NCBI GenBank assembly: GCA_038883435.1 | Contig: JAVZMD010000002.1 | Location: 1 to 38,958, forward strand | Reading direction: 5' to 3' | Length of the DNA stretch: 38,958 nucleotides | DNA from: Thermoproteota archaeon | GTDB taxonomy: Archaea > Thermoproteota > EX4484-205 > JAAOZP01 | Part shown: piece by piece, positions 6,079-38,958 of the stretch | Numbering within the stretch: position 1 is the first letter of the stretch | Layout of the letters: every line of letters begins with the position of its first letter | Notes under the pieces: generated by a model | Told to the model about the DNA's origin: nothing | The model's database searches: none | Seen by the model: the letters and a program-made list of their open reading frames with translations, nothing else | Made by a program: the position numbers and the translations under genes

Positions 6079-6378
6079 CTATTTAGCTGCCTCCTCTAAC
6101 AGTTTTTCCACCTCGCCGGGATTCGGAACCCTTCCCATGATTTTAACCGTGCCGTTTATTGCTATGGCTGGGGAAAACAAAACACCGTATTTCTGCACAA
6201 TTTCCTTAGACATTATGTTAGCCTTTTCAACGTTCACCATTACGCCTGACTGCTTAAGCTTCTCAGCAGCTTTTTCCACAGCCTTTCTAACTGCTTGACA
6301 ACGCGCACAAGGCGGCTCAGGACCTATCACTTCAACCCTAATCTCCTTTGTAGGAACATTTCCCCTATTTTCATCCAT
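6079..6378 (-). CDS. Thioredoxin-fold redox-active disulfide protein (CxxC)
   Basis: 99 aa with a CARC motif followed by ...YGVLFSPAIAINGTVKIMGRVP. This pattern is typical of the small 'redox-active disulfide protein 2' family often paired with COG0701 permeases. Confidence 0.7.
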   Translation of the reverse strand: MDENRGNVPTKEIRVEVIGPEPPCARCQAVRKAVEKAAEKLKQSGVMVNVEKANIMSKEIVQKYGVLFSPAIAINGTVKIMGRVPNPGEVEKLLEEAAK

Positions 6379-6829: not shown

Positions 6830-7433
6830 GATTTTTACCCTCTTTTGGCTCAGATTAGCATGTTAATAAGTCTTTTCTTTGAAAAAAGACTAGAATTCTG
6901 GACCAAAAACGTTAAAAACGTTATAAACAGCCCCCTTTTATAACTGATAGAGGGTGGAATAAGCAATAAACCTTTCGGGCCAAAGACATAAGAGCCCGTT
7001 TTAAAATAGCGTTTGCTCGATTTTTTCAAAAATGTCTTGAGACCATTGGACGCCAAATCTTTTCTCCATGAATAACGTTATCATTTACTAGCAAATGACA
7101 GTATAACACTAGTTACAATCGAATTTTTCACTTGAAACGCCATTGAAAATTATATTTCAAATGAGGATTTGGAAGAGGAGAAAATATCCCACGAGAAGAT
7201 GCTTCAAGACTGTTTGACGAGTATGAGCCTCAACCCTTGGGAAAAATTAATGATTATAAAAAGTTTTTTGAGAGAAAACGAGACCCGAGGGGTGAGAAGG
7301 CTCAGTTAGAAATAAACTTGTCCAATGTAATCAGTTTTAAAACCCATTGAGACAACTTCAAGACAACTTGTAATCATTTTAAACTTCACCTGACCGAACA
7401 TCATGCCCTGCCATAGGTAGTTGAGAACCGCTC

Positions 7434-8218
7434 TTGGCTGCTTAGCTCTTCCTCCTTCTCCTACGCTTCTTTCTCAGTCCCCATTTTTCTTTGAATTCTT
7501 CTTCGAATTTTTTTCTTTCTCCCCAGTTATGGTTTAAGTTGTACGCGTCGTAGACCATTTTCACCCTTTTAACTATTTCTTCGAATATCTGGTCTTCGCT
7601 CATGCCTTTTGGGTCGAATACCGATGTGTAGCAGGTCCTGCCGACGGGGCCTACTATGAATTCTATGTCCATGCCGTACTTCTCCCTTATTCTTCTCGCA
7701 ACTTCCTCACCCCAGTAGAGGTCTATGAAGGTCCCATACCTCCTCCTCAAACGCTCATCTTTAAGGTATTTCTCCCACCTCTTGTTTATTAAATCGTCTA
7801 AAACCTCCTCTATCTCCCTTTCCCTCTCCTTCCTAATCCTCTCCTTCTCCTCTTCGCTCTTCGCCTTCTCCAATCTACGCCTGTAAAGGTCTGCAGTTAT
7901 TATCTCCAACGCCTCCCCATAGTGCTCTCCTAAAGCATGCGAACTCACCTCGATCCTACCATCGGAGAGCCCATGTACTCCAATGCCTTCATCCAAATCC
8001 GTATTCACATGCCATTCCACACCCCTCAGATAGGGTACGGGCCTATCCACTATCTCATAGGCTAAATCGGGCCTAGTTATCTTATCCTTAAACATCTCGT
8101 TCAAGAAAGCCCCAATCCTCTCCAAAAGCTCCCTACTAACCATCTCCCACAAGCCCACCTCTTCCGAATACTTCAATATAAGGATTTTCATAAGGCCCTA
8201 TGTTGCCAGGGTAAGACG
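7434..8218. repeat. Left arm of a ~785-bp inverted repeat (pairs with 11926..12710)
   Basis: The reverse complement aligns with 11926..12710. The first ~75 nt of the ORFs are identical. Homology runs from ~25 nt upstream of the ATG to 8 nt past the stop (TAAGCAGCCAA) and then breaks. Confidence 0.9.
7442..8191 (-). CDS. Uncharacterised 249-aa highly charged protein with a C-terminal RKKRRRRRKS tail (copy A)
   Basis: Intact ORF differing at 23 of 249 residues from 11953..12702 (my count). Central Glu/Lys/Arg-rich helical stretch. I recognise no family. Confidence 0.75.
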   Translation of the reverse strand: MKILILKYSEEVGLWEMVSRELLERIGAFLNEMFKDKITRPDLAYEIVDRPVPYLRGVEWHVNTDLDEGIGVHGLSDGRIEVSSHALGEHYGEALEIITADLYRRRLEKAKSEEEKERIRKEREREIEEVLDDLINKRWEKYLKDERLRRRYGTFIDLYWGEEVARRIREKYGMDIEFIVGPVGRTCYTSVFDPKGMSEDQIFEEIVKRVKMVYDAYNLNHNWGERKKFEEEFKEKWGLRKKRRRRRKS

Positions 8219-8372
8219 GCTTTTACCATCTATTGCTATGGACGTATTCCTCTCAGCCATTCCGAGCTTTAGCTCCTTTCATTTTTCCTCATTTTACAAT
8301 CTTTTATAATCTAATATAATCTAAGTTGCTCAGGCCTCTTATAGGCCCTTCCCAATTTAACTGGTGGTGGCA

Positions 8373-8519
8373 ATGACTTCCTCCTTAGAGAGCGAGATTA
8401 GGTGTGAAGTAGGTAAATGCGGTCACTGTCATTTCGGGAGTAAACACGTTTGTATGGATGGCCTAGTCTTTAGGTACGGTGAGATGACCACTCTACCAAA
8501 AGGCATATCTCCTTTTTAA
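8373..8519 (+). pseudogene. C-terminal remnant (~48 aa) of a hydrogenase-gamma/AsrB/PyrK-type FAD/NAD oxidoreductase carrying the 2Fe-2S Cys motif
   Basis: SLESEIRCEVGKCGHCHFGSKHVCMDGLVFRYGE matches the family end motif C-x-x-G-K-C-G-H-C...vC.DGpVF. Nothing resembling the ~200-aa N-terminal FAD/NAD domains lies upstream. Confidence 0.6.
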
Positions 8520-8626
8520 GGGAAAATTTCCAGATAGTTGACCCTGCAACTCCCCACTTGAGAATAGCATTGGGGTAATGGTAGCGATTTAAAACTTAAA
8601 AAACCTTAATTTAGGTACAAGTGTCT

Positions 8627-10345
8627 TTAGCGTTTTCTCCACATGACTACTATAATGGCTATTAGGACCAGCATGACTATTAGGCTTACATTCATAATGT
8701 TCAATTCAATCCTCCAGCTCGCAACTAGTGTTACTGGTTCTCTTATAGCGAAAGAATAATTAGAGGAGGTTGAAACTATGCTTCCATTGACCTTCCAGCC
8801 CTCGAAAACGTAGTTAGTGAAGAAATCCCTCGGAATAGCTGTTGGAGATATTGAAACGCTTACCGTTGAGCCGTTAACATATTTCCCAGCTCCCGTTATC
8901 ACTCCTCTTTCACTGTAAACCTTTACTTCGAGTATCGTCGGCTTAACAGCTATCGTCAGAGGAAGCCAATTGATTTCCCCCTCATCATCCCTTACTATAA
9001 GGCTTACCGTGTAATTTCCTTCCTTAGCATACGCGTGAGTTATGCTCTCCCCATAGCCTTCACACCCGTCTCCGAAAAGCCACATCCAGCTAACGATTCT
9101 ACCATCTGGATCGATCGAGTTACTAATGAAAGTAATGTTTTCATTCGAATGGGGCTCCTTCGGCGAATATGTGAAATTTACTATCGGTGGAGAATTGTAA
9201 ACCGTTATTACCTTTTCGCAACTATCTTCAAGCCCCTCATCGTCCTTAACCGTCAGTCTAACAGTATAATTTTCCCTCTTCTTGAATATATGCATTACAA
9301 CTCTTCCAGTCGCATTTTCACCATCTCCAAAATCCCACAGCCAGCTTATTATTCTACCATCTAGATCGGTTGAATTATCCGAAAAGTAAACTTTATCTAT
9401 GCAGGTTATCTTTAGAGGGAAGTGAAAGAAATCTGCCTTTGGTGGCATATTTCCGTATTTAACCAAGGGAAGATAGTCTCCAGGCCCATGTGGAACTTGA
9501 GTATCTCCTATCCCGTCTTTATCCTCATCAGCTCCTGTATAATCGCTCCAACTGTTTCCACCAATCCAAGGTCCACCAATGATGTTCTCGCCTTTGGTCT
9601 TAGTTATATTCCATTTATTTCCAGTGTGGTTGCCGACAATGTTCCAATTCACCTCATTACTAAACCTGTTATTGAAGATCGTGTTATTGCTTGAAAAGTA
9701 AAGTAGAATTCCTAAATAATTTTTAAGAATAGTACAGTTTGCAACGACGCTACTAGAGGAAGAATCAAACATGATTCCGTCTTTATTATCGGATAAAGTA
9801 CAATTGTCTACAATGCCGTTAGAGGAGAGTTTTAGGTAGATGCCGACATCATTACTGAAGATTCGACAACTCTTTATAACGATCTTGGAGGAAGAGTTCT
9901 GAAAGACTCCGATCGTCCCATTACTTATCCTACAGCTAACTATCGTAACGTTAGATGAACCATAAACCATAATCCCAAAGGAATTGTTATGAAGCTCGCA
10001 ATTCTCTATCTTTACGTTCTTCACGTTGTAAAGACAAATTCCAGCATGACTTTTATTCCCCTCTATAACCAGGTTCCTTATGACGAAGTATGAGCTAGTG
10101 TTCCAGATCTCTATTCCATTCATAACAATAGAACTTATACTTAGATTCTCTAATACATATGGCCTCTCTCTTGAGCCATCTCCGCTTACTATTATACTCC
10201 ACATCTTGAAATCCTTATCGCCGTTAATGCATATTGGGCCATGCTTTTTATTTTCCCATTGAGGCTCTGTCTTTATAGGACATGAGAATGCGAATAATAA
10301 TATTAAGGAGAATGTCAGGACGAATACTACAGTGGTATCTTTCAT
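8627..10345 (-). CDS. Secreted, membrane-anchored surface protein: right-handed parallel beta-helix (NosD/PbH1-like) repeats, two PKD domains, a C-terminal Ig-like repeat and a TM anchor
   Basis: N-terminal signal/TM segment. Repeated ~22-aa N..I..C.I..N units. GGNSWSDYTGADEDKDGIGDTQVP motif. Two WxFGDG PKD cores. Hydrophobic C-terminus ending WRKR. Many N-x-S/T sequons. Confidence 0.8.
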   Translation of the reverse strand: MKDTTVVFVLTFSLILLFAFSCPIKTEPQWENKKHGPICINGDKDFKMWSIIVSGDGSRERPYVLENLSISSIVMNGIEIWNTSSYFVIRNLVIEGNKSHAGICLYNVKNVKIENCELHNNSFGIMVYGSSNVTIVSCRISNGTIGVFQNSSSKIVIKSCRIFSNDVGIYLKLSSNGIVDNCTLSDNKDGIMFDSSSSSVVANCTILKNYLGILLYFSSNNTIFNNRFSNEVNWNIVGNHTGNKWNITKTKGENIIGGPWIGGNSWSDYTGADEDKDGIGDTQVPHGPGDYLPLVKYGNMPPKADFFHFPLKITCIDKVYFSDNSTDLDGRIISWLWDFGDGENATGRVVMHIFKKRENYTVRLTVKDDEGLEDSCEKVITVYNSPPIVNFTYSPKEPHSNENITFISNSIDPDGRIVSWMWLFGDGCEGYGESITHAYAKEGNYTVSLIVRDDEGEINWLPLTIAVKPTILEVKVYSERGVITGAGKYVNGSTVSVSISPTAIPRDFFTNYVFEGWKVNGSIVSTSSNYSFAIREPVTLVASWRIELNIMNVSLIVMLVLIAIIVVMWRKR

Positions 10346-10355
10346 CTTAGCTATT

Positions 10356-11090
10356 CTACCTCCTATGCTTAATCAAGAGGTAGGCTGCGATAATACTCAC
10401 AAGTATTATTGGAACGGAATATATCGCCCACATGGAGGGTTTTCCCTCTTCTTCAACTAGGACCTTAGGCTTAATAAGTGGGTAATTATCCATGCTATAT
10501 TCATCTATTACATATGGTCTATCGCCTACTCCATCATCATCTATATCAGTTCCATTGTAATCGTCCCAATAGTTTCCTCCAATATATTTCCCTCCCACTA
10601 TGTTTTTCCCCTCGTGCTTCTCTATGTTCCACTTGCTCGGATAAAACATCGCACCAAAAGCTTCACAGTTCTTCGCCTTTAGAGTAAAATTGCCGTGGAC
10701 TAATATCTTCGTATTGTTAAAGAAGTTGTTGTAGATTAAATTGTCTTTTGCGAAGTCGAGTTTTACTCCTATCTGGTTGTTTCGTATTATGCAGCCCGTA
10801 ACCGTGTTATTATGAGAAAGCAAAAGGCGTATGCCATAACTGTTTCCATATAGTTCGCAGTCTTTTATGACGTTATTCGTTGAATACAGAAGGCTTATTC
10901 CCTCGTAATTATTATAAGCTTTACAGTTAACGATAAGGGTGTTATTAGTTGGAGGAAACCTCAGCTTCATTCCAAGGAAAGATGCCTCTCCATCCTTTAA
11001 TTTTATTCCACTATATGAATTATTGTATACTTCACAGTTTATTATGATTGCATCGAAGGTAGAGGATAAGTAGATGCAGTTAATGAAGCA
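10356..11090 (-). pseudogene. 5'-truncated paralog of the beta-helix surface protein: beta-helix repeats, GGNYWDDYNG..DDDGVGD motif and C-terminal TM anchor
   Basis: The track ORF starts at 10970, but the same frame stays open and beta-helix-like (FINCIYLSSTFDAIIINCEVYNNSYSGIKL) up to ~11090. No signal peptide or plausible N-terminus is present. Similarity ends where the + strand 305-aa gene begins. Confidence 0.6.
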
Positions 11091-12008
11091 GTGACGCTGA
11101 TTTACGTGAAGGAAGGGTCTGTCTGCACGCCCGTGTATAGCCTTAAAGCCGGAGACATTAAATCCGCCTTAAACAGGGCGTTTAAGTGGAAGGAGGATAC
11201 GAAGGGGAGGGAACACATAGGCCTGAAGGAGAAGCTCCTCGTATTGCTCGGCTACCAAGCCTACCAGGATTTGAAGGAGGGAATAGGGAGCAAGTACGGG
11301 ATCCTCGTAGAATTCGACAACGGCAGGAAAGCTTACACCGGAGACGAAAGCATAGCAATCCACGTGCCAGAGGGAGCAAGCAAGATGGAAACGATAGTCG
11401 TGACATCAATAGAAGAAAGAATGCGATACGACCTTCATGAGATAATAGAGTGTTTCGCTCGGGGAGAAGAGAGGGATGCAGCTATTCCAATAGGGCGCGT
11501 CGGCGAGCACATCATATACACTAAACATCTCGATGAAATAAAGGAGCTGATTGTCCAAAAGCTCAGGGAAGACGGAGTCCCTGAGGAGCAGATTTGGTAT
11601 TTCCGCGAGAAGGTGGTTTCAAAGAAATTAGGGACAGATGCTTCTGGAGAGAGGGTGACAGACATAGTTTTTAGGGCTCAGGAGGAGATAGTCCTGGGGG
11701 GAAAGAGGTTTAAGAAGGACGATGTCGTCGCGATAGTGGAGATTAAGAGCACCACTAAAACATACTCCGAGAGCGAATTCAAAGAGAGGTTTGGCGAAGC
11801 AGTGGGAGACCTTAAGAATAAATACGTCAATATTGAAGACTATAAAACCGCCATGTATGGTGTTGCCGTCGCCTTCGGTTTCGAGCCCGAGGAAATGCTG
11901 TGGAGCCTAACGCTATTCAACGAGTTATCTTACCCTAGTAATATAGGGCCTTATGAAAATCCTTATATTGAAGTATTCGGAAGAGGTGGGCTTGTGGGAG
12001 ATGGTTAG
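11091..12008 (+). CDS. Uncharacterised 305-aa protein with a C-terminal PD-(D/E)xK nuclease-like motif
   Basis: GERVTDIVFR (Asp at 11661-11663) followed by DDVVAIVEIKS (Glu 11739-11741, Lys 11745-11747) gives a D...E-x-K arrangement. GTG start. The 3' end overlaps the next gene by 56 nt. Confidence 0.65.
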   Translation: MTLIYVKEGSVCTPVYSLKAGDIKSALNRAFKWKEDTKGREHIGLKEKLLVLLGYQAYQDLKEGIGSKYGILVEFDNGRKAYTGDESIAIHVPEGASKMETIVVTSIEERMRYDLHEIIECFARGEERDAAIPIGRVGEHIIYTKHLDEIKELIVQKLREDGVPEEQIWYFREKVVSKKLGTDASGERVTDIVFRAQEEIVLGGKRFKKDDVVAIVEIKSTTKTYSESEFKERFGEAVGDLKNKYVNIEDYKTAMYGVAVAFGFEPEEMLWSLTLFNELSYPSNIGPYENPYIEVFGRGGLVGDG

Positions 12009-12710
12009 TAGGGAGCTTTTGGAGAGGATTAAAGATTACTTGAGCGAGATGTTTAAGGATAAGATAACTAGGCCCGATTTAGCCTATGAGATAGTGGATA
12101 GGCCCGTACCCTATCTGAGGGGTGTGGAATGGCATGTGAATACGGATTTGGATGAAGGCGTTGGAGTGTTTGGGCTCTCCGATGGTAGGATCCGGGTGAG
12201 TTCGCATGCTTTAGGAGAACATTATAGGGAAGGTTTGGAGATAATAACTGCAGACCTTTACAGGCGTAGATTGGAGAAGGCGAAGAGCGAAGAGGAGAGG
12301 GAGAGGATTAGGAAGGAGAGGGAAAGGGAGATAGAAGAAGTGATGGACGATCTAGTCAACAAGAGGTGGGAGAAATACCTTAAAGATGAGCGTTTGAGGA
12401 GGAGGTATGGGACCTTCATAGGCCTCTACTGGGGTGAGGAGGTTGCGAGAAGGATTAGGGAGAAGTACGGCATGGACATGGAATTCATAGTAGGCCTCGC
12501 GGGCAGGACCGGCTACATATCGGTATTCGACCCAAAAGGCATGAGCGAAGACCAGATATTCGAAGAAATAGTTAAAAGGGTGAAAATGGTCTACGACGCG
12601 TACAATTCGTGGTACGATTTAGGAGAAAGAAAAAAATTCGAAGAAGAATTCAAAGAAAAATGGGGACTGAGAAAGAAGCGTAGGAGAAGGAGGAAGAGCT
12701 AAGCAGCCAA
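11926..12710. repeat. Right arm of the ~785-bp inverted repeat (pairs with 7434..8218)
   Basis: See the left arm. The arms bracket a 3707-bp central segment (8219..11925). Confidence 0.9.
11953..12702 (+). CDS. Uncharacterised 249-aa highly charged protein with a C-terminal RKKRRRRRKS tail (copy B)
   Basis: Intact paralog of 7442..8191. Its start lies inside the 3' end of the PD-(D/E)xK-like gene, in a different frame. Confidence 0.75.
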   Translation: MKILILKYSEEVGLWEMVSRELLERIKDYLSEMFKDKITRPDLAYEIVDRPVPYLRGVEWHVNTDLDEGVGVFGLSDGRIRVSSHALGEHYREGLEIITADLYRRRLEKAKSEEERERIRKEREREIEEVMDDLVNKRWEKYLKDERLRRRYGTFIGLYWGEEVARRIREKYGMDMEFIVGLAGRTGYISVFDPKGMSEDQIFEEIVKRVKMVYDAYNSWYDLGERKKFEEEFKEKWGLRKKRRRRRKS

Positions 12711-12817
12711 CGCAGCATCGGAATATTCTTGGATATCCCTTTTAAGGAGGATGCTGAGCTGGGAGGAATGCTTTTAAGGAGGAGGGTTAAAAAGATGTTT
12801 ACGAAGGGTAGCGGAAA

Positions 12818-16252: not shown

Positions 16253-16343
16253 GCTCCGGTGGTGTAGCCCGGTATAAAAATTCGGATAGCATACTGGCCT
16301 TTCGAGCCAGGGGTCGCGGGTTCAAATCCCGCCCGGAGCACCA
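16253..16343 (+). tRNA. tRNA-Glu(UUC) with encoded CCA and an apparent ~13-nt insertion or non-canonical intron in the D-loop
   Basis: Acceptor GCTCCGG/CCGGAGC, anticodon arm CTGGC-CTTTCGA-GCCAG (TTC at 16301-16303), T arm GCGGG-TTCAAAT-CCCGC, A-CCA. The D-stem GTGT/GCAT encloses a 23-nt loop where 8-11 nt is expected. Confidence 0.85.
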
Positions 16344-17495: not shown

Positions 17496-17580
17496 GCGGG
17501 GGTCGCGTAGCCTGGCCAATCGCGCGAGGCTTAGGACCTCGTCCCGTAGGGGTTCGTGGGTTCAAATCCCACCCCCCGCA
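17496..17580 (+). tRNA. tRNA-Leu(UAG), class II with a long variable arm
   Basis: Acceptor GCGGGGG/CCCCCGC, anticodon arm CGAGG-CTTAGGA-CCTCG, long variable arm (TCCCGTAGGGGTTC), T arm GTGGG-TTCAAAT-CCCAC, discriminator A. Confidence 0.88.
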
Positions 17581-17794
17581 CTATTTTTACTGGTAAAAAC
17601 TCATGTACGCGTTTATCCTTAATTAATCATGAGTTTTGGATAATTAATGATAAGGATTCGTTGCCAAAATCCACCGAATTGACAGCAATATAAGTATCGC
17701 ATTTTCTAGCTTGTAAAAACGAATAATCTAATGAGCATGCAAAATAATTTAAAGTATTGTTATGGTATTCCGATAAATCTGAGGAGGGCTTTAA

Positions 17795-26706: not shown

Positions 26707-26803
26707 TGGGCCGAGCCAGACTCGAACTGGCAGCCTCCTGCGCTTGCTGTGCGTTTTTTCACGCATGTCAGGCAGGCGTCCTAACCACTTAGACGATCGG
26801 CCC
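26707..26803 (-). tRNA. tRNA-Val(GAC) with a 23-nt intron at the canonical 37/38 position (intron 26743..26765)
   Basis: Acceptor GGGCCGA/TCGGCCC, anticodon stem CCTGC/GCAGG, loop CTGACA|intron|C, T arm GCCAG-TTCGAGT-CTGGC, discriminator A. The intron contains a TGCGT/ACGCA hairpin. Confidence 0.85.
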
Positions 26804-34209: not shown

Positions 34210-34612
34210 ATATTCTTGACGCGATCACTCTTTCATAAACATCGTCTGATTCTCTAATCTCTGAGAATAAGCCGGATAGCTCTGCTATCTTCTGAGCAAG
34301 CAGATGGTAACAAGTATATGCTTCCCCAGTCATAACGTAGAAGAAGAAGTCTTTACAACTACAATATTTCACGGAAGGAAACACCAGGTACTCTTCGCCC
34401 CTACCGACTATTATCCACCTGACCCTCCCTGAGGGATGTAAAACATACTTCTTAACCCTCTTTAGAGCCACTATCTTAAGAGCCCTCCTACCTCTTTCCC
34501 CGAATGCTTGAATAAGCTTTTCTTCACACTCACGTGTAATACCTTTCTTCAAAATAATCTTGGCAACTTCCTCAGGTATTTTTTCAACGCTATCCTTATC
34601 TTCTACACTCAT
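34199..34612 (-). CDS. SWIM zinc-finger protein
   Basis: CxC...CxH arrangement: KYCSCKDFFFYVMTGEAYTCYHLLA. Confidence 0.65.
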   Translation of the reverse strand: MSVEDKDSVEKIPEEVAKIILKKGITRECEEKLIQAFGERGRRALKIVALKRVKKYVLHPSGRVRWIIVGRGEEYLVFPSVKYCSCKDFFFYVMTGEAYTCYHLLAQKIAELSGLFSEIRESDDVYERVIASRIFIG

Positions 34613-34613
34613 A

Positions 34614-35384
34614 ATGTGTTTCTATAGTGGTTTGAACAGAGCTTCAAAATATAAGCTTATCAAAGGAGAACCAGCCCTCCTCTCAGGAGACACGTTAGTA
34701 ATTGCAGACCTGCATATAGGTTATGAGGGAGAGATAAGGCTCAGGGGAATAGCTTTCCCAAGCCTTACTGAAAAAATGCTAGATAGGATTTTAAACCTAA
34801 TTAAGAAAAATTCCGCTAGAAGACTAATAATACTAGGGGATTTGAAGCATACGGTCTATGGTCCGAGAGGACTAGAGTGGAAGGAAATACCTGTTTTCAT
34901 GAAGAAGATAACCGATGAATTAGACTGGGTGGGAGTTGTTCCTGGGAATCACGATGGAGACCTCTATGCTGTACTCCCTGATGGCGTTGAATTAATCGAC
35001 CCAGACGGTATTGTTTTTAACGATATTCTCTTCACCCATGGTCATAAGAGGATCGATAATATACTGGAGAGGAGGCTTAGGGAAGGAAGCGTTATTAAGA
35101 CTGTTGTAGTTGGGCATTTTCACCCTGCTGTCGAACTAATTGACGACCTTGGCTACAGGTATACCGTACCGGTTTGGGTTAAAGGTACTGTTAATAGAGA
35201 CATTGAGATAATACTGATGCCTGCTTTCAATGAAAATATTGGAAAGCTTGCCATAAACAATCCTGAGAAACTTTCAGAAGAATTAAGGGGCTTTCTTAAA
35301 ACAGGTTTGATAAACATCAGTGAGGCTGAGGCCTATAGCCTAGACCTAGTTCTAATCGGCAAAATTGGCGACATAGTAGTTTAG
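34614..35384 (+). CDS. Calcineurin-like metallophosphoesterase (ICC/COG1407-like)
   Basis: Motifs ADLHIG, GDLKH, GNHD, THGH and GHFHP. I prefer the ATG at 34614 over the track start at 34560, which lies antisense inside the SWIM gene. Confidence 0.8.
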   Translation: MCFYSGLNRASKYKLIKGEPALLSGDTLVIADLHIGYEGEIRLRGIAFPSLTEKMLDRILNLIKKNSARRLIILGDLKHTVYGPRGLEWKEIPVFMKKITDELDWVGVVPGNHDGDLYAVLPDGVELIDPDGIVFNDILFTHGHKRIDNILERRLREGSVIKTVVVGHFHPAVELIDDLGYRYTVPVWVKGTVNRDIEIILMPAFNENIGKLAINNPEKLSEELRGFLKTGLINISEAEAYSLDLVLIGKIGDIVV

Positions 35385-37735: not shown

Positions 37736-37875
37736 AAATGGATTAAATACCACCAGAGCATACGGATGTTTCTGAACAGTGATAGACCATTCTAAATAGA
37801 TTTTTCGATTCATGCCAATACATTCTGTGAACAGGGTGTACTTATTTCTGGATTATCCACCGGTTTAAAAGAAAG

Positions 37876-37898
37876 TGGACCGGGTGGGACTCGAACCC
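37876..37898 (-). other. Orphan tRNA 3'-end fragment (T-loop plus 3' acceptor strand plus discriminator); candidate att-site scar
   Basis: The minus strand reads GGGTTCGAGTCCCACCCGGTCCA. The 5' strand needed for the T-stem (GTGGG) is replaced by AAGGG, and no D arm or anticodon arm can be assembled upstream. Confidence 0.55.
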
Positions 37899-37965
37899 TT
37901 AATTAATAGCCGATCCTGGCTAGACATGCTTGCTTAAATTCTATAATTAACTAAAAATAATCGCA

Positions 37966-38958
37966 TTGAAAAAGAGTAAATGTGGGTTTAACTGTGAAAA
38001 TTGTCCTTATTTTAGAAAGCTGTGTGCCGGTTGTGTGATCGAAACATGCTTAGTGGATCACTGTATCAAGGGTAAATCTTACAGCGGTATAACGCATCCG
38101 AGGAGTTTTTGCAGGCTTAGATCATACTGCCCAATCGGAGGGAGGGATAGACCTCCTCCCCTACCGATACCATCTGTAGAAATGAGGCAAATGGAAAGAG
38201 TGGATTTCTCTAGGTTTGTACCTGAGATCGACGTTACTGATGAAAGGTCTTGGCTCTGGAAAGAGGATGTTCAAATGCCAATGGTTTTCGTGCTGCTTTG
38301 GCAATTGCTTACCGATGAAAATATTTTATCCCAAGCATCTAGCAAAGGGCTTCATGATTATTTGGGTTTTGATGGAAAAATATTGCTGTCAACGGTTATG
38401 CCTGACGAGCTTATTGACAAACTGAAAACCAAAGATTACTTCAAACTGATTAACGACCTAAGGCCCGATGCTACGATGATCCCTGATAATTACACTTATA
38501 CCGATGCCCCGCTCTACCAGTCTTGGTCTCAAACCATACGCCTCATTTTCTTTGCAAAAGAATTTCTTAAGTTAGATGTCCCTCTAATCGGTTTAGTTAA
38601 AGGAGCCAATCTGCGCCAGATGGATTGGACAATTAGGAAACAGGTGGAGATGGGATACGTTTCCTTCGTGATGCCTGCGAGAGAGCTGTTCGAGGAGGAG
38701 AGACTGGACGAGTTTCTCCCATATATTTTACAAACCCTGAAAAGAAGCTATAAACGAAAAGCAGATTTCGAGCTCCTCCTCTACGGTATTGGTCAGAGGT
38801 TGGGGAGGTATAGAGACATTAGTTTTAGTAATCTTTCCTGGTTTCTAAGGGCAAAACACGGAGAATACTGCTGGGACGGCTTGTTCTATGATCTGAAGGA
38901 TCCAGTGATAAGGTTTGAGGAATGCTACTGCGAAGCATGTAGGGGAATGATGCCCCAG
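37966..38958 (+). CDS. Partial (3' end off-window) TGT/DpdA-superfamily-like protein with a Cys-rich N-terminal extension; absent from the ORF track
   Basis: 331 open codons from TTG 37966 to the window edge. N-terminus KCGFNCENCPYFRKLCAGCVIETCLVDHC. Later LLLYGIGQRLG and FSNLSWFLRAKHGEY blocks resemble TGT LFGAGHP / FDSASYALYAKDDRY. CYCEAC (38923-38940) matches the TGT Zn motif CxCxxC. Confidence 0.6.
   Translation, partial: MKKSKCGFNCENCPYFRKLCAGCVIETCLVDHCIKGKSYSGITHPRSFCRLRSYCPIGGRDRPPPLPIPSVEMRQMERVDFSRFVPEIDVTDERSWLWKEDVQMPMVFVLLWQLLTDENILSQASSKGLHDYLGFDGKILLSTVMPDELIDKLKTKDYFKLINDLRPDATMIPDNYTYTDAPLYQSWSQTIRLIFFAKEFLKLDVPLIGLVKGANLRQMDWTIRKQVEMGYVSFVMPARELFEEERLDEFLPYILQTLKRSYKRKADFELLLYGIGQRLGRYRDISFSNLSWFLRAKHGEYCWDGLFYDLKDPVIRFEECYCEACRGMMPQ

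Follow-up and report, generated by a model that had tools for sequence, protein, structure and literature searches.

A TGT-superfamily protein with an N-terminal cysteine domain leads a nuclease-containing cassette inserted at gene 3' ends in Brockarchaeota and Thermoproteota

The tRNA-guanine transglycosylases (TGTs) recognise tRNA-like stem-loops, and archaea make preQ0 for archaeosine; ArcS demonstrates that TGT paralogues can have a non-exchange chemistry. Nobusato reportedly described, in 2000, restriction–modification (R-M) gene units which insert 'with long target duplication'. Three Asp residues are found without exception in TGT and in the 7-deazaguanine DNA transglycosylase DpdA; the mutation D95A or D256A abolishes guanine exchange, and DpdA needs the ParB-like ATPase DpdB (PMC10164549). 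The R-M units with long target duplication were recognised by direct repeats of more than 30 bp, variable in length and composed of target sequence, around units with no other mobility gene; the repeats often overlap gene 3' ends or tRNA genes, and the units were bacterial methyltransferase/restriction endonuclease pairs, no archaeal case having survived the screen (Furuta 2010, PMC2853133). Here we analyse a gene for a TGT-like protein at the end of contig JAVZMD010000002.1 of a Thermoproteota archaeon (assembly GCA_038883435.1); the complete contig of 38,958 bp is referred to as the window, and the gene is cut by the assembly break at its end. The gene is the first of a conserved operon of three genes, together with genes for a LAGLIDADG nuclease and for a protein here called X, and this operon behaves as a discrete insertion cassette of ~2.8 kb at gene 3' ends, with long target duplications of variable length. 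The features by which the R-M units were recognised are also found in this cassette.

As the window ends inside the TGT-like gene, the downstream context was taken from the contigs of relatives. A gene for a LAGLIDADG_3 protein of ~304 aa starts 1–15 nt after the TGT-like gene in every lineage, and the overlapping gene X (~212–227 aa) comes next. This order is near-universal among the 71 loci of a 6-frame hidden Markov model scan and the trio is present at more than 50 related loci; in one sub-lineage X is placed divergently upstream. The LAGLIDADG partner matches PF14528 (E=2e-11) and the I-DmoI profile (E=4.5e-9) and contains two motifs, GLIxSDG and GFFSGDG, both with their acidic residues kept. 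X is modelled by AlphaFold as two alpha/beta halves (e.g. L017 10004–10678) with a predicted local distance difference test score (pLDDT) of 92.7; a faint Pfam match to MIT_C (E=0.043), by which X would be a PLD-like nuclease, was not supported by this confident model and Foldseek. The genes flanking the trio are unrelated housekeeping genes, different from locus to locus and often translation-related, and the ~2.8 kb between the repeats described below contain the three genes and no integrase or transposase.

Direct repeats bracket the trio at 13 loci; they are 27–135 nt long, 92–100% identical and spaced 2787–2901 nt apart. Based on gapped alignments the repeats are target DNA, namely the 3' part of a tRNA gene with its downstream flank, or the end of Ham1. 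The repeat is perfect at L018 (33 nt, composed of the 3' end of an intact tRNA-Glu and a further 10 nt), at L017 (27 nt, the 3' end of tRNA-Ala) and at L025 (52 nt on both sides of the cassette, in the same tRNA-Ala arrangement as L017). At L013 it comprises 33–43 nt (tRNA-Leu), and at L005/L038 it comprises 135 nt, which correspond to the final 45 codons of Ham1; the two copies differ by one synonymous mismatch and in their stop codons. Species-representative genomes were scanned as well and yielded the repeat loci L025, L026, L027, L029, L031, L039, L040, L042 and L061. Insertions are found at the 3' ends of tRNA-Ala, -Leu and -Glu, of one further tRNA, of Ham1 and others, and the repeat length differs even for one target (33–87 bp for tRNA-Leu). 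The X reading frame extends 0–18 nt into the right repeat copy, so duplicated target DNA encodes the C-terminal tail of X. This short run into the target accounts for the 'X-end-like' sequence of the left repeat, which is therefore no evidence for terminal redundancy or tandem copies. In the distant lineage of L010, a convergent fucosidase gene has its 3' end repeated in a copy of 69 nt (74% identical) 4.9 kb away. Since this repeat has decayed, old repeats evidently erode, and the near-perfect repeats beside elements which are 15–40% apart in protein imply recent insertion or ongoing conversion. Repeats were not found at L001, L007, L011, L012 and L015/16, even by a sensitive search. The complete cassette and 27-nt tRNA repeats at both its ends fill nearly the whole of one contig (L026; JBMFNR010000018.1, 2950 bp) which is binned as the bacterium Fervidobacterium sp.; it is most likely a mis-binned archaeal repeat and less likely a free or transferred copy.

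The cassette is present in 4–9 diverged copies per genome: nine loci in the metagenome-assembled genome (MAG) GD2_1, seven in S1_Bin_053, six in SRP231805_co4_161 and four in DRTY-6.bins.80. Many copies sit at contig ends, and the break in the window contig is explained by this tendency of the repeated cassette to end contigs. One or all three genes are frameshifted or fragmented at L020, L033, L037, L044, L046, L050, L055 and L062–L070, and remnants or tandem partial copies are found at L001, L028, L066 and L068. The cassettes of L018 and L029 are 95% identical, and each is frameshifted in the linker which joins the N-terminal cysteine domain to the barrel of the TGT-like protein, though not at the same position (~7914–7921 and ~6279–6282, respectively), while their LAGLIDADG and X genes are intact and 97% identical; the two copies could have decayed independently, or a split of the protein into two polypeptides could be tolerated. 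Also, tRNAs with the same 3' ends exist unoccupied, two of them in the window (the tRNA after the isoleucyl-tRNA synthetase gene, and tRNA-Leu at 17496–17581), in a comparison across distinct genera, whose flanks are not alignable.

The preliminary description of the window had proposed an open frame of 331 codons from a TTG, and this is borne out by translation, which runs uninterrupted to the contig end, and by conservation in relatives. The 331 codons represent ~92% of a protein of ~362 aa conserved in Brockarchaeota and Thermoproteota MAGs; the full-length relatives stop ~30 residues past the zinc motif and contain a nearly invariant His within LHN. The TTG is the conserved start, as relatives begin with MKKSKCG at the same position. 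A TATA-like block (TGCTTAAATyCTA) ~30 nt 5' of the TTG is kept together with this start in the five elements aligned (window, L017, L023, L024 and L025); the DNA further upstream diverges, and the blastn homology between the window and its relatives starts at ~37912. Gene callers overlook the TTG: the window copy is called from a GTG at codon 30 (P0001, 302 aa) and many relatives are called as ~289 aa, the Cys-rich part being nevertheless encoded in frame upstream. A database search returned 145 homologues down to E=1e-68, all annotated 'hypothetical' and all from Ca. Brockarchaeota, Thermoproteota or 'Nitrososphaerota' MAGs, and an exhaustive profile search returned only 277 clusters; the frame is far more than a product of chance.

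The relationship of the encoded protein to TGT is visible only through family profiles and structure. Single-sequence searches of Pfam, NCBIfam, PHROGs and (by phmmer) PDB with the window protein gave nothing useful, and PF01702 (TGT) did not match it even at E<=10, below the gathering cut-off; the PADLOC 'TGT' profile matches it weakly (E=3.6e-4) and matches a paralogue fused to a metallophosphoesterase better (E=1.6e-7). PF01702 is touched by 23 of the 27 family members (best relative E=1.4e-6, listed as 'faint'), and a weak similarity to DUF4417 is seen among the members. The family profile matches arcTGT, the archaeosine TGT of PDB entry 1iq8, from the barrel through the zinc motif (HMMER, E=9.1e-7, 1iq8 residues 58–317), and hhalign aligns the same residues with a probability of 96.3% (E=1.7e-9). 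AlphaFold and Foldseek were applied to P0004, a full-length relative 78% identical to the window protein. Its model has pLDDT >90 over residues 65–355, and the top Foldseek match is again 1iq8 (E=5.3e-13, probability 1.00, template-modelling score 0.62), followed by more than 40 Z. mobilis TGT entries; DpdA is not among the top PDB matches of the model, and the phage and archaeal-virus TGT-like models matched in BFVD are far weaker than arcTGT. The TGT-superfamily homology suspected in the preliminary description is thus established. The motifs it had quoted (KCGFNCENC, LCAGCVIETCLVDHC, CRLRSYC, LLLYGIGQRLG, FSNLSWFLRAKHGEY and CYCEAC) are all present, and its hand alignments to LFGAGHP, FDSASYALYAKDDRY and CxCxxC are reproduced by HMMER. 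Of the zinc ligands, C320, C322 and C325 are invariant; the fourth, the His in LHN, is nearly invariant in relatives and its codon lies past the contig end.

Concerning the active site, whose positions were assigned from alignments, the catalytic Asp had been read as Ser by eye, and rightly so: HMMER and hhalign both align Ser142, at the end of the strand 138–142 in the AlphaFold model, to the general acid/base Asp95 of arcTGT (DpdA D95, Z. mobilis D102). Ser288 is aligned by HMMER to the nucleophile Asp249 of arcTGT (DpdA D256, Z. mobilis D280), position 288 is Ala in the metallophosphoesterase-fusion paralogue, and a conserved acidic residue is absent throughout the strand–helix segment SFSNLSWFLRAK under either alignment. 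The base-recognition Asp is retained as Asp174 (PDATMxPDNYTY vs FLD130IPTPPD; arcTGT and DpdA D130, Z. mobilis D156), and all 16 members compared across the wider clade have S142, D174 and Y178. The que and dpd neighbours of a Dpd system are missing: none of dpdB-K, a ParB-like ATPase, folE or queC/D/E was found at ~70 related loci, based on called genes and Pfam annotations, nor among the neighbours of the window gene. Because both catalytic Asp residues are replaced and no que or dpd genes lie nearby, the protein is, as judged by sequence, neither a canonical TGT nor a canonical DpdA.

The N-terminal region forms an orphan domain of 56 residues with nine invariant cysteines (Cys9; C6, C10, C13, C20, C23, C28, C33, C49 and C55), rather than the ten first counted; they are conserved in 11 diverse members, including the metallophosphoesterase fusions. 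The domain matches no profile of PDB or Pfam at E<=10, is modelled by AlphaFold with low confidence and presumably binds a metal or an Fe–S cluster. The CX3CX2C pattern (C6, C10, C13) had been likened to radical-SAM motifs; it is confined to this separate domain, and the barrel matches TGT, not radical SAM, in Foldseek. The TGT-like protein is shown by these data to be a new, unannotated branch of the TGT superfamily, composed of the Cys9 domain, a TGT barrel and a TGT zinc site.

A further trait links the TGT-like protein to its partner. The gene directly after it (first codons at, e.g., L017 9093, L010 9051, L001 7662 on the minus strand and L073 7821) begins with MG[GSA]G[ST]xxxQ[YH]xxRFxxG, and all 46 matches of this motif are at that position. 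The tag is also found on partners of 552 aa otherwise unrelated to the LAGLIDADG proteins, and in a weaker form on the 755-aa partner of a metallophosphoesterase fusion (MGQLSAELNYERRL) and on the 177-aa neighbour of a distant relative (MGGGSRG). The 552-aa partner in L010 was considered as a diverged LAGLIDADG protein and rejected, the match being limited to the 23-residue N-terminal tag. The tag looks like a docking peptide and may be an N-terminal nucleophile for the TGT-like protein. The three proteins differ in their rates of change: between lineages with different targets, the identity is 80–87% for the TGT-like protein, 62–65% for LAGLIDADG and 52–53% for X, the first being the slowest-evolving and X the fastest. 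Since it is the slowest-evolving protein across lineages that use different targets, the TGT-like protein is unlikely to determine target specificity. Two cassettes at the same target, tRNA-Ala(GGC), share 95% identity in the TGT-like protein, 74% in LAGLIDADG and 50% in X (L023 vs L024), a pattern which implies module exchange between cassettes or strong diversifying selection on LAGLIDADG and X.

The coupling to a nuclease is found in three architectures: the LAGLIDADG operon, a C-terminal metallophosphoesterase fusion, and an operon with an Mrr_cat nuclease. In the second, the Cys9, TGT-like and zinc modules are fused to a C-terminal calcineurin-like metallophosphoesterase (L001 5395–9528, minus strand, and L012 1670–3523). 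The L001 fusion is followed by the 755-aa protein, which contains internal acidic repeats; it is divergent from the adjoining standard cassette, lies ~5 kb from the rRNA operon, and no flanking repeats were found around it. The stand-alone metallophosphoesterase of the window (34560–35384) is not specifically related to the fusion domain. The third architecture is seen at L073 (7001–10373, GCA_964539655.1), where a distant TGT-like relative of 280 aa, without Cys9 or zinc modules, is followed by proteins of 177 and 97 aa and, at the end of the operon, by a 578-aa Mrr_cat-TPR nuclease (PADLOC PDC-M58A, E=2.6e-20; LmuA-like). The neighbours are a C5-methylase/Vsr pair, ParE, PIN and NTase genes, as in a defence island, and the operon may be an uncharacterised defence system. 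No relatives of the TGT-like protein were found on the viral contigs of IMG/VR.

The window itself holds the left target copy, the promoter block and 92% of the first gene (Table 1). The stretch at 37871–37898 is unique within the window and matches the intact tRNA-Ala(GGC) 3' end which abuts X in L020, L023 and L024; because the arrangement equals that of L017 and L025, it is the left copy of a tRNA-Ala target duplication, and an intact tRNA-Ala(GGC) is predicted past the contig end. It was not called as a tRNA, and a functional, split or permuted tRNA was rejected. The neighbouring genes are housekeeping genes (malate dehydrogenase, Nep1, isoleucyl-tRNA synthetase). The 'edge of an integrated element' proposed earlier therefore does not hold for the neighbours; what lies at the edge is the TGT-like gene itself, as the first gene of an inserted cassette of ~2.8 kb. 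The Brockarchaeota contig of L018 is collinear with the window through FeoB, archease and isoleucyl-tRNA synthetase, and its cassette, with a protein 81% identical to that of the window, sits at the tRNA directly after the synthetase gene, which is unoccupied in the window. Related elements thus sit at different tRNA genes in related genomes. The ~21.6 kb by which the two contigs differ beyond this tRNA look like a rearrangement, not an obvious integrated element. Three open reading frames suspected by their size to be cassette partners (127–798, 223 aa; 11091–12008, 305 aa; 11953–12702, 249 aa) were rejected, one being an iron-dependent repressor and two unrelated. Many tRNAs in these genomes are 90–110 nt long.

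Table 1. Positions of the cassette features and of other features noted in the window
Feature	Position	Strand	Remarks
Left target-duplication copy: tRNA-Ala(GGC) 3' fragment (T-arm and acceptor strand, ~5 nt flank)	37871–37898	-	27/28-nt match
Cassette 5' region with TATA-like promoter block TGCTTAAATTCTA (37931–37943)	37899–37965	+	Block conserved in five elements
TGT-like gene, codons 1–331 of ~362	37966–38958	+	Cut by contig end; full-length relatives 360–364 aa
Orphan N-terminal domain, nine invariant Cys (C-x3-C-x2-C-x6-C-x2-C-x4-C-x4-C-x15-C-x5-C)	37966–38133	+	11-member comparison
TGT-fold (beta/alpha)8 barrel, residues ~81–319	38206–38922	+	HMMER, hhalign, AlphaFold model, Foldseek
Codon of Ser142	38389–38391	+	
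Codon of Asp174	38485–38487	+	
Codon of Ser288	38827–38829	+	
CxCxxC (C320, C322, C325) of TGT-type zinc site	38923–38940	+	Invariant in family; aligned to arcTGT CSCPVC...LHN
tRNA right after isoleucyl-tRNA synthetase gene	16253–16343	+	Intron-containing; insertion site of related cassette in L018 and L029
Extra ~21.6 kb relative to L018, between tRNA and TGT-like gene	16340–37900		Mostly housekeeping DNA
Block of ~5.9 kb missing from collinear L018 region	6916–12797		NosD/beta-helix/PKD-domain surface-type proteins (8627–10345, 10356–10970); frames 11091–12008 and 11953–12702 without Pfam matches
tRNA of 97 nt	26707–26803	-	Probably intron-containing; Rfam 53.7 bits, missed by default ARAGORN

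Based on these results, we favour, with a probability of roughly 60%, the explanation that the trio is a nuclease-driven selfish cassette, in which the TGT-like protein is a base-flipping partner that does not carry out exchange. The LAGLIDADG enzyme would make one or more chromosomal breaks which lead to insertion or homing, and the spread would resemble the 'insertion with long target duplication' of R-M units. The TGT-like protein would act on DNA, flipping bases without guanine exchange, and would be physically coupled to the downstream nuclease through the N-terminal tag of the partner (MGGGS..QYxRRF). Its likeliest role would be to process or mark DNA, thereby shielding regenerated targets or licensing the nuclease, and probably not to choose the site. 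A LAGLIDADG site is shorter than the duplications, and insertion therefore regenerates the target, which would make a protecting or licensing partner useful. A bolder version, which we put forward tentatively and consider doubtful, is that the Ser-for-Asp TGT fold together with Cys9 (probably Fe–S) is a new DNA-acting enzyme, composite with the downstream nuclease: the MGGGS..QYxRRF peptide of the partner would dock in the pocket and might provide an N-terminal amine as the nucleophile, as glycosylase/lyases do, and the pair would define a new class of archaeal mobile elements targeting tRNA-gene 3' ends, and related nuclease-coupled conflict modules in bacteria.

Several points weigh against the selfish cassette. 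Repeats longer than a LAGLIDADG site mean that the target is regenerated, which simple homing does not explain, and repeats at tRNA 3' ends are also expected from a tyrosine integrase acting in trans. About two thirds of the loci have no detectable repeat; either these are old insertions or the model is incomplete. The TGT-like gene is broken and the nuclease intact in L018, L029 and L058, which speaks against a protective role being obligatory. Neither a circular or excised form nor an empty/filled pair from the same species was seen, occupied and empty sites being compared between genera, and the complete cassette in this genome is deduced from relatives, the window containing neither the downstream genes nor the right repeat. 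Also, the geometry of the active site is judged from alignments only, X has no Pfam, PADLOC or PDB fold match and no significant structural neighbour, and to our knowledge no biochemical activity has been reported for the TGT-like, LAGLIDADG or X protein.

The alternative which survives best, though we regard it as unlikely, is an R-M-like pair, in which the TGT-like protein acts as a genuine DNA transglycosylase by means of other residues (e.g. D147, D168, D180 or E240). Guanine in or near the LAGLIDADG site would be replaced by a 7-deazaguanine (e.g. host preQ0), protecting the chromosome and the regenerated targets, and the nuclease would cut unmodified DNA; since archaea already make preQ0, the cassette could do without que genes. 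This recasts as a selfish module the DpdA-type 7-deazaguanine DNA transglycosylase of the preliminary description, which in its original form is not supported, both catalytic Asp residues being lost and que and dpd neighbours missing. The TGT fold, the zinc site and the guanine-recognition Asp are retained, four Asp residues around the pocket are invariant, and the weak PADLOC 'TGT' matches and the DUF4417 similarity point the same way, as does a pairing or fusion with nucleases that follows the logic of R-M and type IIG systems. R-M units typically insert with long target duplications (PMC2853133), and a regenerated target needs protection. However, both Asp residues whose mutation abolishes exchange by DpdA are missing (PMC10164549), position 288 varies within the family and a ParB-like DpdB is lacking; copies persist in which the TGT-like gene is disrupted and the nuclease intact, and covariation of the TGT-like protein with the target is not seen.

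We find it harder to accept that the trio is defence cargo, with the TGT-like protein as a catalytically altered sensor which flips a modified or particular purine in invading DNA (for example in 7-deazaguanine-modified viral genomes) and licenses the nuclease in a type IV-like manner; the mobility of the cassette would then be that of a defence islet. The L073 operon with its Mrr_cat-TPR nuclease and defence-type neighbours speaks for this, and so do an effector which is interchangeable between LAGLIDADG, metallophosphoesterase and Mrr, the fast evolution and modular shuffling of LAGLIDADG and X (L023 vs L024), and a pocket which has lost the catalytic Asp and kept the base-binding one, as fits a sensor. 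On the other hand, the 4–9 diverged and often decayed copies, each at a gene 3' end with target duplication, resemble a parasite more than a defence repertoire; LAGLIDADG proteins are long-site homing nucleases and poor general restriction effectors, and there is no phage-related evidence, with no relatives on the IMG/VR contigs.

It is improbable that mobility is conferred by the TGT-like protein itself, as a new integrase or transposase with Ser142 or another conserved Ser or Tyr as nucleophile and with the nuclease and X as accessories. It is the most conserved gene and the sole component common to all architectures, by analogy with Cas1 as the hallmark of casposons, and no known recombinase is present in the cassette; the invariant Ser142 is at the position which faces the flipped nucleotide in TGT, and many targets are tRNA genes, in keeping with the recognition of tRNA-like stem-loops by TGTs. 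Yet phosphoryl transfer has no precedent in the TGT fold, variable duplications of 27–135 bp do not resemble the outcome of conservative site-specific recombination, some targets are not tRNA genes (Ham1, the fucosidase gene), and the distant relatives in a defence island give no sign of mobility. Least probable by far is a housekeeping tRNA-modification paralogue (arcTGT- or ArcS-like) with a hitch-hiking homing-endonuclease gene alongside: arcTGT is the closest solved structure, ArcS is a precedent for a TGT paralogue with non-exchange chemistry and the neighbours are often translation-related, but the gene is multi-copy and frequently a pseudogene, lies with the nuclease and X inside the target-duplication brackets at positions that differ among related genomes, and encodes a protein without both catalytic Asp residues and without the C-terminal/PUA domains of arcTGT, ending ~30 aa past the zinc site.

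Literature searches on TGT-like proteins with LAGLIDADG, archaeal elements of this type, DUF4417 function and Brockarchaeota mobile elements found no description of this cassette, which is apparently undescribed so far, and there is a substantial chance that the pairing of a TGT-like protein with a nuclease is something categorically new. If the selfish cassette is correct, the TGT superfamily would have a third functional branch beside the tRNA enzymes and DpdA, with a remodelled active site and an orphan Cys9 domain, and Brockarchaeota and Thermoproteota would harbour a compact, abundant and apparently active family of mobile elements with no recognisable integrase or transposase. Long target duplication, so far documented for bacterial R-M units and not found in archaea, would then occur at tRNA genes in archaea, and the recurring module of a TGT-like protein with an interchangeable nuclease (LAGLIDADG, metallophosphoesterase or Mrr) would represent a general, unstudied coupling of base recognition to DNA cleavage; the LAGLIDADG enzymes of the cassette would be new long-site nucleases with natural tRNA-gene targets. 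In practical terms, the cassette fragments MAG assemblies, as the window contig and many others end inside copies, and its genes are systematically mis-started by gene callers because the start is a TTG.

Compared with known systems, the best sequence and fold match is arcTGT (1iq8), which shares with the present protein, as does bacterial TGT (PF01702), a (beta/alpha)8 barrel into which a CxCxxC...H zinc subdomain is inserted, the Asp of base recognition and the LFGAGHP-like and SASYALYAK-like segments. The present protein differs in having Ser for Asp95, no acidic residue at Asp249 and the extra Cys9 domain; it has 360–364 aa and lacks the C-terminal C1–C3/PUA tRNA-binding domains of arcTGT (~580 aa), and its gene is multi-copy, nuclease-coupled and located inside a mobile cassette. 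With DpdA of the Dpd system and the phage DpdA1–4 it has in common the TGT fold, a probable action on DNA and a genetic association with nucleases or restriction, whereas two of the three invariant Asp residues are gone and neither the required DpdB nor DpdC-K or preQ0-synthesis genes are linked. The LAGLIDADG partner, like the free-standing and intron-encoded homing enzymes (I-DmoI, its homologue, and I-Tsp061I), is a monomeric double-motif protein with both catalytic acidic residues, and the pattern of invasion, decay and loss of copies is that of the homing-endonuclease life cycle; unlike these enzymes it is encoded outside an intron or intein and always with two other genes, has an extra N-terminal region of ~95 aa which starts with the MGGGS..QYERRF tag, and belongs to insertions with target-regenerating duplications of 27–135 bp, which are not a product of classical homing. 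The R-M units with long target duplication (PMC2853133) share with the cassette a small nuclease unit, the lack of an integrase or transposase and long, variable direct repeats of the target; here, the nuclease is a LAGLIDADG enzyme and its putative partner is a TGT-fold protein.

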